Sequence record: OR397123.1
Reading direction: 5' to 3' (one strand)
From: Clostridioides phage AR1074-1
DNA length: 38,059 nt
Shown here: in pieces, positions 3,792 to 10,916 of the stretch
Position numbering within the stretch: position 1 is the first letter of the stretch
Layout: the number at the start of each line of letters is the position of its first letter
Made by a program: the position numbers and the translations under genes
Notes under the pieces: generated by a model
Database searches by the model: none
What the model was told of the DNA's origin: nothing
The model's input: the letters and a program-made list of their open reading frames with translations, nothing else

Positions 3792-4183
3792 AACTTATAT
3801 TCCTTTAATTTTCTATTCTAGTAGTATGAAAATAATTTAAAAGAATAATACCTATTTATTTCCATTCTAAGCATTTTTTTATGCTATTTAACATAAATTA
3901 TTTATAACAAACAGAAAAATCGTTTCTGGTGTCTTGTATCGCTTCTAAATGATATTCTAGTTTCTTAATCAAATAATCATTTTCTTTTTATCCAAAGATA
4001 CATTCTAATAGTTTCTTTACTTTTGAAAAATGCTAATAATATTTTAAATAGCGACCACCACTTTTTGAGACAAGTTAGATTTCTAATTAAGTTAAGTACT
4101 TTAATAAATAAATACAAAAGATACATATTTTGTTCTCTATAATACAAGTTCTCTATAATAATATATTCTCTATATATTTACTG

Positions 4184-4267
4184 CACCACTTTTTGCACTA
4201 CCAAAGCACCACTTTTTGCACTACCAAAGCACCACTTTTTGCACTACCAAAGCACCACTTTTTGCAC
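4184..4267. repeat. Iterons: about 3.7 tandem copies of a 23-bp unit CACCACTTTTTGCACTACCAAAG
   Basis: Perfect head-to-tail 23-bp repeats at 4184, 4207, 4230 and 4253 (last copy partial). A related half-site, accaccactttttg, lies at 4055-4068. Three TTCTCTATAWA boxes lie at 4132-4182 in an AT-rich tract. Confidence 0.65.
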
Positions 4268-4406
4268 GTAGTAAGAAATCTAATTAATTTTTAAAAACTT
4301 ATTAACATGTTATCAACATAAAAATAATGGTTATCAACATAAAAATCAAAGTTATAAACAGCATTGTTATATTTAGACATAAAAATAGACCTTTTTTAAA
4401 GAAGGT

Positions 4407-6712: not shown

Positions 6713-6940
6713 ATTTTACTATAATATAAAAATAATACTGTAATATTATAAAAATATTATTTTAGTATTGTATATACAATATTTTAGTATTTTTAATATA
6801 ATATATTGGTATTGTAAAAGCAATATGTAAATATTGTATTTATATTATTTGAATATTGTAATTAACAATATTAATATATTGTTGCAATATTATAAAAACA
6901 ATACTACAATATTGTTATAATATTATAAATATAATAATGA
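6713..6940. repeat. AT-rich centromere-like (parS-type) repeat field upstream of parA: many CAATATT/AATATTG boxes and short palindromes
   Basis: Examples: perfect palindrome acaatattgt (6906-6915), caatattaatatattg, attgtaattaacaat, and repeated taatattata/aatattgta units throughout the roughly 230 bp of non-coding DNA. Confidence 0.5.
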
Positions 6941-6941
6941 G

Positions 6942-7760
6942 GTGGAGAAAATGGCTAATACAAAGCTACTTACGTACTTTAACATAAAAGGAGGTATCTA
7001 TAAGACAACAACGTCTATAATGACAGCGTATGAACTTGCGAAAGATAAAGATAAAAAAATACTCTTATGGGACTTAGATGTACAAGCAAATCTAACACAA
7101 TATGTTTATGAAATAAATCATAATGATAATACTACATTAGATATTTTAAAAGGGATTAGTGCTAATGATGCAATAGTCAAGTCACCTAATGAAAAGTACA
7201 TTAATGTAGACTTAATTCCTTCTGACATACAAATGGCTAGATTTGAACAAGAGCTATCACCTTTACCAGCCAGAGAAAAATTTTTAGCTCGCTGGTACAT
7301 GCAAAACTTTAATACTTTGAGTGAGTATGATTATATTATCTGTGATTTATCTCCACGCTACGATTTGACAGCTAAAAATGTGCTTTTCTTAGCAGATAGT
7401 ATAATTATTCCAATTCAAGATAAAAACATTTCTTCTTTAAGAGGAGCAGAATTATTTAAACAACTCTGGGATGTTGATAGAACCTATTTTGATAAGGAGG
7501 ATAATATAAAAAGTACTGTTTTGGTTGGATTTGAGAAGAAGAAAACTCAAATTAGTGATACTTTCGATTCTTATCTGGAAGGGTTTAACGATATGAGAGA
7601 TATTATGTTAGATACATATATTAGAAAAAACGAGTTTATAGAGAAGGCACTATTGAAAAAACTATCTCTAACAGATTATACAAAAATAACTAAAGAGCAT
7701 TTCAGCAGACAAGAGTTTGCTAATATGTTAGAAGAACTAAAAGTGAAAGGAGTGTTGTAG
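6942..7760 (+). CDS. parA: ParA/MinD-family partition ATPase
   Basis: 272 aa with a deviant Walker A (NIKGGIYKTTTS, KGGxxK[ST] type) and Walker A'/B regions (LLWDLD, IICDLSP). RBS GAGGTGGAG. Confidence 0.85.
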   Translation: MEKMANTKLLTYFNIKGGIYKTTTSIMTAYELAKDKDKKILLWDLDVQANLTQYVYEINHNDNTTLDILKGISANDAIVKSPNEKYINVDLIPSDIQMARFEQELSPLPAREKFLARWYMQNFNTLSEYDYIICDLSPRYDLTAKNVLFLADSIIIPIQDKNISSLRGAELFKQLWDVDRTYFDKEDNIKSTVLVGFEKKKTQISDTFDSYLEGFNDMRDIMLDTYIRKNEFIEKALLKKLSLTDYTKITKEHFSRQEFANMLEELKVKGVL

Positions 7761-8096
7761 ATGCCAAAATTCGACGAAGAACTTTTATCTAATAAAGAAA
7801 AACCAGTTTTCAAAAAAAATGGAACAATCATACAAAATAATTCTACAACTACAGACAATAAGACATTAAACATATATAATCTAGTTAATAAGAAAAGTAA
7901 AAAGGTAACTATGAGTGCAACGCTTGATGAAGAACTTGTAAACAAATTAAAATCTTTTTCTATTGATATGAACAGCGACGTCAGCAAATTATTAAGTGAT
8001 GTACTAACTCAAATTTTATCTGATGTCACTATAAAAGAAGAGAATTTAAATATATACAATGAGAGAAATAGAAGAAATAAGACTAAGAAAAAGTAA
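7761..8096 (+). CDS. ParG/CopG-like ribbon-helix-helix partition adaptor (centromere-binding protein candidate)
   Basis: 111 aa. ATG immediately follows the parA stop. The C-terminal half, KKVTMSATLDEELVNKLKSFSIDMNSDVSKLLSDVLTQIL, fits a beta-strand-helix-helix RHH. The N-terminal half is disordered and basic. Confidence 0.6.
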   Translation: MPKFDEELLSNKEKPVFKKNGTIIQNNSTTTDNKTLNIYNLVNKKSKKVTMSATLDEELVNKLKSFSIDMNSDVSKLLSDVLTQILSDVTIKEENLNIYNERNRRNKTKKK

Positions 8097-8225
8097 ATAA
8101 TATTATATTTATATTGTTTAGATATTACTTAAATATTGTATATATAATATTTAAGTAATATTTTAATATTATTATTACAATATATCGATATTGTTTAAAT
8201 AATATGTTTTAACTATAATCTAAAA
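8097..8225. repeat. Second centromere-like AT-rich repeat field (ATATTGT boxes; 13-bp inverted repeat attacttaaatat/atatttaagtaat)
   Basis: Inverted repeat at 8126-8159 plus repeated atattgt/aatatt boxes, mirroring the field upstream of parA. Confidence 0.45.
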
Positions 8226-8238
8226 GGGGTTGGAAAAG

Positions 8239-8520
8239 ATGAATGTTTATTTGCAAATTGGAAAAGAGTTATCTGAAAAAATGACTAAATCTGAATTAAA
8301 TAAGTTTTCGCAGGAGGTGGCAAACTATCTGCAATACGCTGGACTTGATAAGAATATGAAAATTAAACTATTTCAAACAATTTTGGAAATGGTGGCAAGG
8401 AAAAAAATAACATTATCAAGCGATAGCGAATTTACGGAAGGAATATTGCAAAGCGACGAAGCAGAAATGACAATGAACGTAGGATTTATAATCGAAGGAT
8501 TAAGTTATCATAATAACTAA
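8239..8520 (+). CDS. Hypothetical protein (93 aa)
   Basis: The track begins at a TTG at 8230, but an RBS GGGG at 8226-8229 fits the ATG at 8239 (MNVYLQIGKEL...). A strong terminator follows. Confidence 0.5.
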   Translation: MNVYLQIGKELSEKMTKSELNKFSQEVANYLQYAGLDKNMKIKLFQTILEMVARKKITLSSDSEFTEGILQSDEAEMTMNVGFIIEGLSYHNN

Positions 8521-8536
8521 ACATTTTTAAAAAAAC

Positions 8537-8572
8537 AGTGTATTTATTGAATACACTGTTTTTATTTCCGCA
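8537..8572 (+). terminator. Rho-independent terminator (cagtgtatt-tattg-aatacactg plus TTTTTATTT)
   Basis: Perfect 9-bp stem followed by a T-run directly after the 8239-8520 gene. Confidence 0.7.
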
Positions 8573-8786
8573 TAGTTAATCTAAAATTGGATATTGTATC
8601 ATATGGATATAGATTAAATTGATATTTAAATCCCTTATAGTTAATCTTAAAAATTGTTATTATATTATTTCTCTATAAATTAAATTGACATTTAAATCCC
8701 TTGTAGTTAATATAAAAATTCTTATTACAATATCATTTCTAAATAAATTAAAAAATATTTTAAATCCCTCGTAGTTAATCTTAAAA
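8560..8786 (-). CRISPR. Orphan CRISPR-repeat-like mini-array: 3 well-conserved plus 1 degenerate 29-30-bp direct repeats at a 66-bp period. Minus-strand unit is TTTTTAWKATTAACTAYAAGGGATTTAAAT.
   Basis: On the plus strand the repeats lie at 8624-8652, 8690-8718 and 8757-8786 (ATTTAAATCCCTTRTAGTTAATMTWAAAA). A degenerate copy lies at about 8560-8587, as expected for a trailer-end repeat. Spacers are 35-38 bp. The minus-strand repeat begins TTTTATATTAACTA and ends GGGATTTAAAT, like clostridial type I-B repeats (recalled C. difficile consensus GTTTTATATTAACTAAGTGGTATGTAAAT). No cas genes in the window. The spacers share an AAATTAAATTGA motif, so a true array is uncertain. Confidence 0.4.
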
Positions 8787-8822
8787 GCGATACTATATAC
8801 ATTAATAATAATACTCTTCTAC

Positions 8823-9317
8823 TTAATTTTCAACTATATTTTGTAATTCTTGTTTACAACTTTCAATGCCTTCTCGTAATTCTTCTAAAAAAACTGATGT
8901 GCTATCGTCTATATTTCTTTCAGCAATTTCTTCAAAATTTTCTTTATTGAATTTTTTATAACTATCCCAATTCAAACTTTCGCATTTATTTTCGCACCAA
9001 TTTTCAAATTCTTCGTAATCATTTACGTAGTAAATTTCTCCAAACATATCGTCTAAGTTATTTCCTGTTTGTCTTGATGTGAAAATATTAATTTCTTTAT
9101 CATCATCTAAAAGTTTAGCATAAGCCTGGATTGCTATCGCTTCAACTTTTCCTTGTATATCGATATAAATTTTTATATCATTAGTCTCTTTGATTAAACA
9201 ACTTTCTTTAAAAGCTTTTATAGCTTCTTCCTCTATTTTATCTATATTCATATCTATAACCTTTAAAAATTTTTTAGCTTCTTTTTTATCCATTTTATCC
9301 ATTTTAATTTCCTCCAT
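8823..9317 (-). CDS. Hypothetical strongly acidic protein (164 aa, about 28% Asp+Glu); candidate anti-defence DNA mimic
   Basis: Last gene of the three-gene cargo operon. Its stop is 36 bp from the CRISPR-like repeats. No recognisable domain. Confidence 0.5.
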   Translation of the reverse strand: MEEIKMDKMDKKEAKKFLKVIDMNIDKIEEEAIKAFKESCLIKETNDIKIYIDIQGKVEAIAIQAYAKLLDDDKEINIFTSRQTGNNLDDMFGEIYYVNDYEEFENWCENKCESLNWDSYKKFNKENFEEIAERNIDDSTSVFLEELREGIESCKQELQNIVEN

Positions 9318-9324
9318 TTTTTAG

Positions 9325-9828
9325 TTATTTTTTATATATAACAGTTCTTTCGCTCTTTTCAATTTCTGTAAGATACTCTAAAAATTCTTTAATTTCTTGC
9401 TTGTTTATGCCTATAAATTCGTGTCTAATTTCACATTTTTCAATACGTGTAGAATATTTCTCTTCTAATTTATAAAATTTAGGTCTTACATTGGCTATAA
9501 GGTCACTTTCTACATTTTTGCTACACAAGCTATTTACATATATTAAAATGTTTTCTATATTTTCTATGTCTACTTTGTCGCCTTTTGAATAATAAAAATT
9601 AAATCTCAATCTTATTCCTATTTTACTGTTAATTTCACCATGACCCCACGTTTCAATGTTTAAACTTTTTCCAACTGTTTCTTTAACGCTTCCAATGTGA
9701 CCGTTCGCACAATCTTTAAGACTTATATCAAATATATCATTGTTGATTTTATTAATCTCTTTTTCTATCATTTTAACATTCTCTTTATTAACTTTTAAAT
9801 CTAATATTGTACTAAAATCTATATTCAT
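9325..9828 (-). CDS. Hypothetical protein (167 aa), cargo operon gene 2
   Basis: Tightly spaced with its neighbours (7-bp gap), suggesting translational coupling. No recognisable motif. Confidence 0.5.
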   Translation of the reverse strand: MNIDFSTILDLKVNKENVKMIEKEINKINNDIFDISLKDCANGHIGSVKETVGKSLNIETWGHGEINSKIGIRLRFNFYYSKGDKVDIENIENILIYVNSLCSKNVESDLIANVRPKFYKLEEKYSTRIEKCEIRHEFIGINKQEIKEFLEYLTEIEKSERTVIYKK

Positions 9829-9904
9829 GTTTTAAACCTCCAATTATTTTTTATTTTAATTATAGCATTCAATGGTGAACTATATTTGTATCAAGTTGAA
9901 ACTT

Positions 9905-10738
9905 TTAACACTCTACGCCATCTCTGAATACTTGGTATGCAATTTCTATTTTTCTTTCATCACTTTCTATTTTTCTATAGTTTTCAATCTGCTTCTTTTT
10001 AATGTCTGCAAATCCATTTCTATAAAATTGTGCATTTTTTTGTATTAATGTTTCTATTATGTATTTTTTAGCTTTCTCTATATATTCTGTGCTAGTAGCT
10101 TGTTTTACTGCGTCGTCAAATATTTCAACTATTTCAAGTACATTTTCTTTTATTTCATTAGACCAATTATCATTAAAATTTATTTCTTTAGCTATTTTCT
10201 TAGCTTCTTCATAGCTTATACTATAATCTTTAACTTTTTTAAGTCTATAAGATGCTTGTGTCTCCCCTTGTAAAAAACTCCAATTTCTGTTCTCTTTTGC
10301 AAATTGAGAATCTTTTAATATCTGATTTATATGAAATGCTTTTTGATTTAAAGAATTATACTTTAAAACATTTCTAAAATTATCTATAAAGAACTTAGCA
10401 TTCTCTATATTGCTTATTGCTTCTCTTATTCTTTCAAATTTTCTTTTACATCTTTCTGTCATTTCTTCTATACTCATGTCTTTAATTTTGTAGTCTTCAT
10501 TTTTTATTCTTTCTATTTTACTTTTTTCTAGTTCGTTAGTTAAATTTAAAATGTCTGTTCTTATATCATTAGCCCAAATAATTTGTTTTTCTGACCCTTT
10601 TAATTCTTTCAATTTTATATCCCCCTTTTTATTTAAGAATGATAAGCAAAGACTAAATTGTACTTTATAATCTACATTACTATATTTTCTTTTTATTTCT
10701 CTTGCCATTTTATGCGCTTCTTTAAATAAAATTTTCAT
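9905..10738 (-). CDS. Hypothetical protein (277 aa), cargo operon gene 1
   Basis: First gene downstream of a divergent promoter shared with a small XRE-like regulator. Lys/Glu-rich and helical, with no recognisable catalytic motif. Confidence 0.5.
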   Translation of the reverse strand: MKILFKEAHKMAREIKRKYSNVDYKVQFSLCLSFLNKKGDIKLKELKGSEKQIIWANDIRTDILNLTNELEKSKIERIKNEDYKIKDMSIEEMTERCKRKFERIREAISNIENAKFFIDNFRNVLKYNSLNQKAFHINQILKDSQFAKENRNWSFLQGETQASYRLKKVKDYSISYEEAKKIAKEINFNDNWSNEIKENVLEIVEIFDDAVKQATSTEYIEKAKKYIIETLIQKNAQFYRNGFADIKKKQIENYRKIESDERKIEIAYQVFRDGVEC

Positions 10739-10916
10739 TCTTTGCTTACCCCCTTGTTTTATTTGTTAATTATATTATAATCTATATGAATATCTAAGTC
10801 AACACTTTTTCAAAGTTTTTTCTTTGATTTCCAAAAATATAACTTTGATTAGCGTAGATTATTCTTTTACTTTTAATTTTTTTATGTTATTATATAAATA
10901 AGAGAGGTGCGAAAAA

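Follow-up and report, generated by a model that had tools for sequence, protein, structure and literature searches.

The window, that is, the whole stretch of 38,059 nt of Clostridioides phage AR1074-1 (OR397123.1) that was analyzed, contains a tandem repeat at positions 8572–8786 (Tandem Repeats Finder: period 66, 3.2 copies, 80% matches, score 240), and a repeat search of the window placed the direct-repeat families D1–D3 at the same location. The locus consists of four 29-nt repeats and three spacers of 39, 37 and 36 nt, with the minus strand as the crRNA sense. Read in this direction, the leader-proximal repeat R1 (TTTTAAGATTAACTACGAGGGATTTAAAA; 8758–8786) is followed by spacer S1 (39 nt, TATTTTTTAATTTATTTAGAAATGATATTGTAATAAGAA; 8719–8757), repeat R2 (TTTTTATATTAACTACAAGGGATTTAAAT; 8690–8718), spacer S2 (37 nt, GTCAATTTAATTTATAGAGAAATAATATAATAACAAT; 8653–8689), repeat R3 (TTTTAAGATTAACTATAAGGGATTTAAAT; 8624–8652), spacer S3 (36 nt, ATCAATTTAATCTATATCCATATGATACAATATCCA; 8588–8623) and the degenerate terminal repeat R4 (ATTTTAGATTAACTATGCGGAAATAAAAA; 8559–8587). 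R4 has kept its 5′ 21 nt, from which the last crRNA would take its 3′ handle, and has a degenerate 3′ end, as is likewise the case for the terminal repeats of true C. difficile arrays. The three conserved repeats and one degenerate repeat that an earlier, sequence-only reading of this DNA had proposed are confirmed. Its view that the repeats diverge less than the intervening segments also holds (25–26 of 29 positions identical between R1, R2 and R3, vs. 62–70% pairwise identity between S1, S2 and S3), but the period, taken to be a strict 66 bp, is in fact 65, 66 and 68 bp. The AAATTAAATTGA motif that it saw at the repeat junction of the spacers forms the 5′ end (RTCAATTTAATyT) of S2 and S3, whereas S1 has only a related version.

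No ORF of at least 30 aa in the ORF list of the window overlaps the array. Short ORFs are annotated here in AR1086-1 and phiCDHM11; a small protein gene was set aside, as the ORFs at this position in the window are 25–29 aa long, and the differing number of repeat units between phages weakens this reading further. A stable RNA structure was also set aside, with a fold z-score of only -1.75 for the array and no structure in the individual repeats.

Upstream of the array in its own orientation lies a gene for an AcrIB2 homologue of 164 aa (8823–9317, minus strand), which is 82% identical to phiCD38-2 gp27 and belongs to phrog_4337. The phiCD38-2 protein is the validated AcrIB2, a type I-B anti-CRISPR (PMC10732046). 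R1 begins 36 nt past the acrIB2 stop codon, with no terminator in between. Two minus-strand genes of unknown function precede acrIB2 (9325–10738), encoding proteins of 167 aa (9325–9828) and 277 aa (9905–10738), and orf167 and orf277 share an operon with acrIB2 in phiCD38-2 as well (gp26, gp25). The best promoter-like site of the operon, TTGACT-17-TATAAT (11/12; 10774–10802, minus strand), is located downstream of the endolysin terminator (11171–11140). As the sequence-only reading had it, the array is situated in the 3′ region of a minus-strand operon, its most degenerate copy is leader-distal, and cas genes are absent, both from the ORF list of the window and from domain scans of the eight ORFs nearest to the array.

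The interval between acrIB2 and R1 forms part of a short conserved "leader" (8787–8833, minus strand), in which a promoter-like TTGAAA-17-TATTAT (8833–8805) overlaps the acrIB2 stop codon. This element is also preserved in copies that have a different acrIB2 C-terminus. The region leading into R1 does not resemble the canonical leader of C. difficile CRISPR arrays (...TTTATTTTGGG). At the other end of the array, an inverted repeat (I6) folds into a perfect 14-bp hairpin with T-runs on both sides (8531–8563, both strands), which is predicted to be a bidirectional terminator serving the array transcript on the minus strand and orf96 on the plus strand. orf96 (8230–8520, plus strand; phrog_4021), of unknown function, is convergent to the array. 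An antisense "anti-repeat" RNA from the plus strand was set aside, as the orf96 terminator intervenes before the array and the orientation signals favor the minus strand.

The C. difficile host carries a type I-B system (PMC4556805). Compared with the commonest C. difficile repeat, GTTTTAGATTAACTATATGGAATGTAAAT, the four repeats are identical at 24 (R3), 23 (R2), 22 and 21 (R1) of 29 positions (72–83%), and no other site in the window exceeds 19. Maxima in 200 Markov-1 simulations of the window mostly fell at 19–21, with 23 attained twice and 24 never. The clostridial type I-B origin advanced in the sequence-only reading is upheld by these values, which exceed the next-best site and, for the top repeat, the simulation maxima, so that the repeats match the host repeat better than chance, a check which that reading had itself named. 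The C. difficile consensus that it gave, GTTTTATATTAACTAAGTGGTATGTAAAT, is real, as an existing repeat variant of the species. In Rfam, CRISPR-DR14 is the best match for R2, R3 and R4 (27.2, 23.3 and 21.3 bits), though not for R1, and all three matches are below the gathering score of 45. The array repeats are diverged C. difficile type I-B repeats. Across arrays, repeat positions 9–15 and 19–28 are invariant and positions 1–2, 5–8 and 16–18 are variable; the host repeat variants also differ at positions 1, 7 and 16–18. Each of the three fixed differences between phage and host repeats also exists in other species, in type I-B arrays that are long and linked to cas genes (GGGATGTAAAT, GGAATTTAAAT), suggesting that the phage repeat is plausibly still a Cas substrate. 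The phage repeat variant GGGATTTAAA was present in none of the long arrays found.

The acrIB2-array-orf96 module occurs in approximately 24 GenBank phage records (phage JD032 also carries the array), 27 IMG/VR contigs, C. difficile plasmids and integrated prophages, and the AcrIB2 family is seemingly confined to C. difficile. Each of the 27 contigs with the phage-type repeat has only 1–3 exact copies. In 26 of them the repeat sits between an acrIB2 homologue (52–91% identical) and orf96, and the 27th ends at the contig edge. The array is found strictly together with acrIB2, to which it is physically fused. orf96 adjoins the array in all 27 contigs and in most other copies, and is missing from the CD160 copy (L176). 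Among 19 distinct arrays we found 23 spacer variants of 36–40 nt, which fall into three paralogous families present in 0–3 copies, with S1 as the best-conserved family; units have been gained and lost, and recombinant chimeric units are present. None of the 19 arrays contained a novel spacer, whereas true C. difficile arrays sampled in the same way yielded 426 distinct spacers out of 917 and have a canonical leader. The closed set of three spacer families and the absence of both new spacers and a canonical leader indicate that the array no longer adapts.

With about even confidence, we read the locus as a non-adapting, CRISPR-derived mini-array that has become part of the anti-CRISPR operon of the phage, and that would act, expressed together with AcrIB2, as an RNA anti-CRISPR of Racr or Cracr type. 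We infer from the sequence that the array may be transcribed, processed by Cas6, loaded onto Cas proteins and inhibitory. Transcription of the minus strand would proceed together with orf277-orf167-acrIB2 from the promoter at approximately 10800, or from the TTGAAA-17-TATTAT element of the array at the acrIB2 stop codon, and would end at the 8531–8563 hairpin. The host type I-B Cas6 would cut 8 nt before each repeat end, giving three crRNA-like RNAs with the 5′ tag AUUUAAAU (AUUUAAAA for S1). These would compete with host crRNAs for Cas6 and Cascade subunits and, together with AcrIB2, would weaken type I-B interference; the conserved spacers might also direct Cascade, without cleavage, to a site in the host, for instance a cas promoter (Cracr type). 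The position of the array directly behind acrIB2, with a strong terminator only after the array, supports this reading, as do the linkage of the two across phages, plasmids and prophages, the lack of adaptation and the occurrence of the fixed repeat differences in type I-B arrays elsewhere. On the other hand, as the repeats are 72–83% identical to the host repeat and below threshold for CRISPR-DR14, Cas6 or Cas5 of C. difficile may not accept them. The sequence-only reading had included an RNA anti-CRISPR built of solitary repeat units among its options; the identity of the upstream ORF as acrIB2 favors that option, but the element is a repeat-spacer array and not a set of solitary units.

The closest parallel for an RNA partner of an Acr protein is acrIC5-racrIC1, in which RacrIC1 lies 11 nt downstream of AcrIC5 and both share a single transcript, in a prophage of Bifidobacterium pseudocatenulatum (Camara-Wilpert et al. 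2023, PMC10651486). Here, as in the phage array, a repeat mimic of the host's subtype follows an acr gene by a few nt in a cas-less phage; for the phage array, co-transcription is presumed. The context by which Racrs are recognized is found here as well: the array is intergenic, on a cas-less mobile element, next to a promoter-like site and an acr gene, and of the host subtype. Racrs, however, are solitary repeats, whereas the phage arrays have 2–4 repeats, with canonical-length spacers and 72–83% identity to the host repeat. SRUFinder, the search pipeline of PMC10651486, keeps only matches that are at least 90% identical to a known repeat, and would therefore discard this locus on two counts, its arrayed layout and its lower identity. 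Screens for solitary repeats thus have a blind spot for arrayed, diverged repeat mimics. The phage repeat does not occur in the portion of the PMC10651486 supplement that was covered.

While deviating from a strict Racr, the phage array resembles the newer class of Cracr arrays. In viral Cracr arrays the spacers are related to one another, and an Acr protein is encoded alongside (Liu et al., bioRxiv 10.1101/2024.10.29.618823). Like them, the phage array is multi-unit, outside CRISPR-Cas loci and on a temperate phage, with degenerate repeats, interrelated spacers and a co-encoded Acr. What defines a Cracr is PAM-proximal pairing with the promoter of cas or creT, often together with similarity to a host CreR/CreA gene, whereas the likeness of the phage array lies in layout and acr context. 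Cracr arrays were reported for types I-C, I-E and I-F, with type I-B represented by candidates only and C. difficile absent from the main text (bioRxiv 10.1101/2024.10.29.618823). A more specific proposal, which we regard as rather doubtful, is a multiplexed type I-B Cracr: three related RNAs would load into Cascade and, by partial PAM-proximal pairing at cas-operon promoters or array-adjacent toxin promoters, stop CRISPR-Cas transcription while AcrIB2 blocks existing complexes. If true, this would explain why the cas operon is down-regulated during infection by JD032; infection lowers the eight-gene type I-B cas operon by a mechanism left unexplained in that study (PMC7205517). JD032 itself carries the array, and the cas down-regulation is also circumstantial evidence for an RNA anti-CRISPR in general, tempered by the fact that in the same infection more host genes go down than up. 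AcrIB2 is thought to be a DNA mimic (PMC10732046) and as such would also block the Cascade-DNA binding that a guide mechanism requires.

We consider it unlikely that the array is a decaying remnant, i.e., a CRISPR fragment that was captured once, travels with acrIB2/orf96, shrinks by repeat-mediated deletion and is functionless now. Its units do fall from three spacers to one hybrid R1/R4 repeat or to no array while acrIB2 is kept (phiCD481-1, phiCD506, LIBA6276, ES-S-0107-01), indicating that the array is dispensable; the chimeric spacers reflect ongoing unequal recombination, and the repeats have diverged from every host repeat. The rate of change argues otherwise: the non-coding leader, array and terminator diverge by 0.054 per site, approximately threefold less than the synonymous third positions of orf96 (0.158). 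The invariant repeat positions are non-random and cover the whole 8-nt handle, and the terminal repeat keeps exactly the 21-nt portion that forms the 3′ handle. This slow divergence, the invariant positions and the intact terminal portion all count in favor of an RNA anti-CRISPR. Further points against decay are the retention of TTGAAA-17-TATTAT despite differing acrIB2 C-termini, and the persistence of the array in siphoviruses, myoviruses, 131-kb plasmid phages and integrated prophages, with acrIB2 alleles that are only 52–56% identical to each other. The strong conservation could nevertheless stem from recent horizontal spread of a mosaic module and not from selection, as the block-wise mosaic pattern of identity suggests similarity via recent exchange, and in closely related acrIB2 alleles the synonymous sites are conserved to about the same degree as the array. 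In phiCDHM11, phiCDHM13 and phiCDHM14, acrIB2 is split and the full three-spacer array is kept, which again counts for the RNA anti-CRISPR; the split phiCDHM13 acrIB2 genes were inactive in a published test (PMC10732046).

The sequence-only reading had also offered a phage-borne mini-array directed at competing phages. A working array of this kind, whose crRNAs would use the host type I-B Cascade and Cas3 against a competing phage or plasmid, is quite improbable. Its layout is fully crRNA-competent (29-nt repeats, 36–40-nt spacers, a terminal repeat with an intact 3′-handle portion), the good conservation of the spacers, chiefly S1, fits a guide with a conserved target, and transcribed arrays are common on C. 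difficile prophages (PMC4173771; PMC6127314). Those true prophage arrays (Hargreaves 2014, PMC4173771; Boudry 2015, PMC4556805) share the repeat family, the 29 + ~37 nt period, the cas-less phage context and the degenerate terminal repeat with the phage array, but differ in having 3–20+ repeats, diverse spacers with phage protospacers, and a canonical leader or a defined short promoter-leader. The phage array shows their repeat architecture, but its spacers are interrelated and matched no foreign source in the phage, plasmid and IMG/VR collections, and it has neither spacer acquisition nor a canonical leader. The CRISPR of phiCD211/phiCDIF1296T (LN681537) is the orthologous locus, with the same repeats, three spacers that are 92–100% identical, and acrIB2 and orf96 as neighbors. 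It is annotated rpt_family=CRISPR and, in the passage of PMC10732046 that cites Garneau 2018, is said to be an array of four spacers directed against known C. difficile phages; in AR1074-1, four repeats enclose three spacers. A protein search with the 49-aa "Cas3" fragment of phiCD211 matched only the fragment itself.

Searches of 50,697 phage records, 72,556 plasmids and IMG/VR yielded no protospacer for S1, S2 or S3. All matches of the three spacers in C. difficile phages lie within homologous arrays, with repeats on either side in place of a CCW PAM, so the comparison with phages and plasmids that the sequence-only reading had called for speaks against its mini-array. It may also correct the literature: within the collections searched, every phage "target" of the phiCD211 array is a further copy of this array. 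No PAM-flanked seed match extended further in IMG/VR, plasmids or 1.26 Mb of C. difficile phage DNA; a scan of metagenome contigs for CCW with a 16-nt seed produced 103 matches, which look like chance and are in no case near cas genes, and a literature search with the repeat and spacer strings returned nothing relevant. The lack of a target in phage DNA, metagenome contigs and IMG/VR counts against any guide function. Virus-borne mini-arrays carry one to few spacers without cas genes, depend on the Cas proteins of the host and have spacers that match related viruses. Such arrays in archaeal viruses are said, in work of 2019 attributed to Medvedeva et al. and to Faure et al., to act in inter-virus conflict. 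The phage array is alike in its few spacers and lack of cas genes, but the AR1074-1 spacers match only their own orthologues, and no match to a related or competing virus emerged from the phage, plasmid and IMG/VR searches. The mutual paralogy of the three spacers, the lack of a new spacer in any array and of a canonical leader, and an operon that also encodes a protein disabling the very machinery needed are likewise difficult to reconcile with a weapon.

Very improbable, finally, is a role at the DNA level, in which the repeats would be iterons (as the sequence-only reading had suggested), a centromere or an operator bound by a ParA/RHH pair or by orf96, or a recombination hot spot: units are regularly spaced, orf96 always adjoins the array in viral contigs, and the array lies ~460 bp downstream of parA (6942–7760) and an RHH gene (7761–8096), but phiCD211, the integrated prophages L298 and L299, and L301 carry it with no ParA next to it, the CD160 copy has no orf96, the 22- and 33-bp tandem repeats upstream of parA (6717–6938) are better centromere candidates, and the 29 + 37 nt periodicity, strand asymmetry, degenerate terminal copy and full crRNA architecture are CRISPR hallmarks that binding sites do not need. 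A partition site or iterons of a ParA plasmid-prophage system were rejected on the same ground, the persistence of the array where adjacent parA is absent (phiCD211, L298, L299).

AcrIB2 alone among anti-CRISPRs has been validated against the type I-B system of C. difficile, and the array may be its RNA partner; the region downstream of AcrIB2 has been described as a divergent lysogenic-conversion module (PMC10732046). Should the array be an RNA anti-CRISPR, the AcrIB2 protein may account for only part of the ~10-fold protection that phiCD38-2 lysogens show. The two would form a protein-plus-RNA pair like AcrIC5/RacrIC1, and the array would be a first among RNA anti-CRISPR candidates, both for C. 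difficile and for type I-B hosts of clinical relevance. Both phage therapy of C. difficile and genome editing with its endogenous CRISPR depend on type I-B activity.

A tblastn search with six Cas proteins against the collected loci found cas genes only in other species, and a scan of IMG/VR with a Cas7 profile gave one locus, which is unrelated. The Cas7 of L187, an oral Clostridiales type I-B locus, retrieved no C. difficile protein among the best 120 of 4,200 matches. Among the type I-B loci compared, L187 alone carries a solitary repeat in its cas3–cas4 interval, a feature considered as a potential host origin for the GGGATTTAAAT variant.

A tandem array with a period of 66 and 3.2 copies was identified at positions 8572–8786 using Tandem Repeats Finder (score 240), and a separate repeat search returned matching families, confirming the direct-repeat array that the sequence-only reading had placed here. 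Read in the crRNA sense (minus strand), it comprises the repeats R1 (8758–8786), R2 (8690–8718), R3 (8624–8652) and a degenerate R4 (8559–8587), separated by the spacers S1 (8719–8757, 39 nt), S2 (8653–8689, 37 nt) and S3 (8588–8623, 36 nt). The spacing is 65, 66 or 68 bp and not the strict 66 bp that had been proposed. As also noted earlier, the repeats are less diverged than the intervening segments, with pairwise agreement of 25–26 of 29 positions for R1–R3 versus 62–70% identity for the spacers. The four repeats match the commonest C. difficile repeat, GTTTTAGATTAACTATATGGAATGTAAAT, at 24, 23, 22 and 21 of 29 positions, and the best site elsewhere in the window at 19. Simulating the window 200 times gave a maximum score of 23 in two cases and 24 in none, so the suggested likeness to clostridial type I-B repeats exceeds chance. 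The nearest Rfam family for three of the repeats is CRISPR-DR14 (27.2, 23.3, and 21.3 bits, all below the curated threshold of 45). We conclude that the array repeats are CRISPR in origin.

The window represents a temperate C. difficile phage, with structural genes on the minus strand that are 93% identical to phiCD6356; C. difficile plasmids of 37–38 kb show 96% identity to its array region. Only 36 nt separate R1 from the stop codon of an ORF (8823–9317, minus strand) that is 82% identical (128/156, E = 1e-94) to phiCD38-2 gp27, the product of acrIB2, whose inhibition of the type I-B system in C. difficile has been validated (PMC10732046). In phiCD38-2, acrIB2 is described as the third and final gene of a unit behind the lysis genes and as strongly transcribed in lysogens (PMC10732046). 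The same unit is present here on the minus strand, as orf277 (9905–10738), orf167 (9325–9828) and acrIB2, with a promoter-like site (11/12 match, 10802–10774, minus strand) downstream of the endolysin terminator. No terminator was found between acrIB2 and the array in the window. A second, weaker promoter-like site, TTGAAA-17-TATTAT (8833–8805, minus strand), overlaps the acrIB2 stop codon and is kept even in copies with a different AcrIB2 C-terminus. At the end of the array, a perfect 14-bp hairpin with T-runs on either side (8531–8563, both strands) serves as terminator for the convergent plus-strand gene orf96 (8230–8520) as well as for the array.

The acrIB2-array-orf96 module is found in phiCDHM11/13/14, JD032/033, phiCD38-2/111/146, CDSH1, slur17, CD1801, phiCD418, AR1075-1, AR1086-1 and phiCD211/phiCDIF1296T/LIBA2945, and also in C. 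difficile plasmids and chromosomally integrated prophages. Of 2.9 million viral contigs scanned, 27 contain the phage-type repeat TTAACTAYRAGGGATTTAAA, with 1–3 exact copies apiece; in 26 of these it is flanked by an acrIB2 homologue (52–91% identical) and orf96, and the remaining contig is cut at its end. The AcrIB2 family comprises 61 clusters, whose named members are all from C. difficile. In the divergent C. difficile lineage CD160 (AVHW01000024.1, L176 1–200), two repeats and one S1-like spacer, TGTTTTTTAATTTATTATGAAATAATATTATATCATT, sit behind an acrIB2-like C-terminus without orf96, indicating that the array tracks acrIB2 and not orf96. The full three-spacer array is retained in phiCDHM11/13/14 despite a split acrIB2, which there consists of two overlapping ORFs (L002 3782–4205 in phiCDHM11), unlike the intact gene of the window; in phiCDHM13 the split genes were inactive in a published assay (PMC10732046).

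The sequence-only reading had left three explanations open: a mini-array against competing phages, an RNA anti-CRISPR that mimics the repeat, and protein-binding iterons. Judged from sequence comparisons, the RNA anti-CRISPR appears to fit best. The array would yield crRNA-like products, cut by Cas6, that rival host crRNAs for Cas6 and Cascade; we infer each step from transcription onward, and regard the chances of this mechanism as about even. A programmed silencing function is additionally possible. The arrangement with acrIB2 parallels the acrIC5-racrIC1 bicistron, which contains a solitary-repeat RNA anti-CRISPR (Racr), and the arrays of viral crRNA-like regulatory RNAs (Cracr), which likewise have several related spacers and adjacent Acr genes. 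JD032, which infects strain TW11, carries both an acrIB2 homologue and the array, and its infection down-regulates the eight-gene type I-B cas operon (TW11_0693-0700) by a mechanism that the authors call unknown (PMC7205517); this is suggestive, but not specific, support. The retention of a full array beside a split acrIB2 in phiCDHM-type phages also counts towards this reading.

That the array is an inert relic is possible, but the constraint on it agrees poorly with this. Across the 20 distinct inner repeats, positions 3–4, 9–15 (TTAACTA) and 19–28 (GGGATTTAAA, including the 8-nt 5′ handle) are invariant, and positions 1–2, 5–8, 16–18 and 29 vary, of which 1, 7 and 16–18 are variable in host repeat variants too. 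In the terminal repeat, the first 21 nt, forming the 3′ handle of the final crRNA, are preserved and the rest is degenerate, as are the ends of terminal repeats in true arrays. Three differences from host repeats (A at position 18, G at 21, T at 24) are fixed in all copies examined except the divergent CD160 copy, which has T at position 18. Individually, all three turn up in cas-linked long arrays from other Clostridia and Bacilli (GGGATGTAAAT; GGAATTTAAAT, in C. bornimense and Laceyella); in none of the long arrays from 185,579 species genomes was their combination, GGGATTTAAAT, seen. Conservation of S1 equals or exceeds that of the repeats. Divergence per site is 0.054 for leader, array and terminator (51 locus pairs) versus 0.158 at synonymous third positions of orf96. 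Since acrIB2 alleles close enough for ungapped alignment show a comparable level (0.072), this conservation could alternatively be due to mosaic exchange. A relic also accords poorly with retention of the array in very different phages and beside different acrIB2 alleles.

A working array directed at competing elements is disfavoured. Over all copies we distinguished 19 arrays, in which all 23 spacer variants belong to the families S1, S2 and S3 and no spacer of a new kind occurs. They differ by gain or loss of whole units and by chimeras, such as an S2/S3 hybrid spacer in phiCD418 and a single R1/R4 hybrid repeat in phiCD481-1 and phiCD506. This closed set indicates that the locus evolves via recombination, not adaptation. 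Similarly collected C. difficile prophage arrays show as many as 20 listed exact copies of the repeat per locus, 426 distinct spacers out of 917, and a canonical leader or defined short promoter-leader unrelated to the region upstream of R1. BLAST of S1, S2 and S3 against 50,697 phage records returned, in C. difficile phages, only orthologous arrays; an exact scan of IMG/VR for the S1 core gave back the same loci, and in 72,556 plasmids a BLAST search with the entire array hit homologous arrays and noise only. PAM-anchored scans covered 1.26 Mb of phage DNA from C. difficile, the window among it (CCN plus 14 nt, ≤2 mismatches), as well as IMG/VR and metagenome contigs (CCW plus 16 nt each); none produced a match past the forced seed. 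The phiCD211 array is said in print to target known C. difficile phages (cited in PMC10732046); since spacer matches in these phages are orthologous arrays only, this probably reflects array-to-array matches. Besides its closed, paralogous spacers and lack of targets in the phage, plasmid, viral-contig and metagenome collections searched, the array has no canonical leader and is fused to a gene disabling the machinery it would use. Iterons or a partition site are excluded, as the array occurs without adjacent parA, upstream of which there are more convincing centromere candidates.

Phage-borne CRISPR arrays in C. difficile, like Racrs and Cracr arrays, have been described before, and the phiCD211 copy is already annotated as CRISPR. 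New are the strict linkage to acrIB2 in many phages, the non-adaptive set of three spacer families, the absence of targets in the collections searched, and the consequent re-reading of the array as an RNA anti-CRISPR candidate of type I-B.

Other repeats were observed in the window. The dense tandem repeats at 6717–6938 (a 22-bp unit ×4.6 at 6725–6826 and a 33-bp unit ×2.5 at 6852–6936), immediately upstream of parA (6942–7760) and its RHH partner (7761–8096), probably constitute the centromere or operator of the plasmid-prophage partition system. A perfect 23-bp tandem repeat, GCACCACTTTTTGCACTACCAAA (4183–4267, 100% matches over 3.7 copies), and the 21-bp repeat ×2.5 that comes next (4309–4360) resemble iterons and possibly mark where the episomal prophage begins replication. 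Between the RHH gene and orf96 (8098–8198), a 42-nt near-palindrome (8100–8183) and a 33-bp repeat overlap promoter-like sites and may form the orf96 operator.

Some C. difficile arrays (L188 1000–1450, chromosome OX244046.1; many IMG/VR loci) form a second class, with repeat GTTTTATATTAACTATGTGGTATGTAAAT and without a long leader. Their layout resembles that of the mini-array: a promoter (TTGTTA-17-TATAAT) and a terminator hairpin precede a 5′-degenerate first repeat by ~10 nt. In Clostridiales bacterium oral taxon 876 (KE993473.1, L187 3290–3360), a cas operon contains, between cas3 and cas4, a solitary repeat of type I-B, GTTTTTATATTAACTATGTGGGATTTAAAT, which ends in the unusual GGGATTTAAAT common to the phage repeats and is followed by a 37-nt spacer-like stretch. 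No counterpart was found at the equivalent position in 14 further type I-B loci; the repeat could be a crRNA-like regulator of the host. In large phiCD211-like phages (L011 1–1771 in LIBA6276; L012 1–1476 in ES-S-0107-01), a helicase that shares 26% identity with type I-B Cas3 is encoded ~1 kb or less from the acrIB2 homologue. In phiCD211, a 49-aa ‘Cas3’ ORF, with no homologues among 5.8 billion proteins searched, adjoins two transposase genes, suggesting that the helicase gene may be disrupted in this phage.
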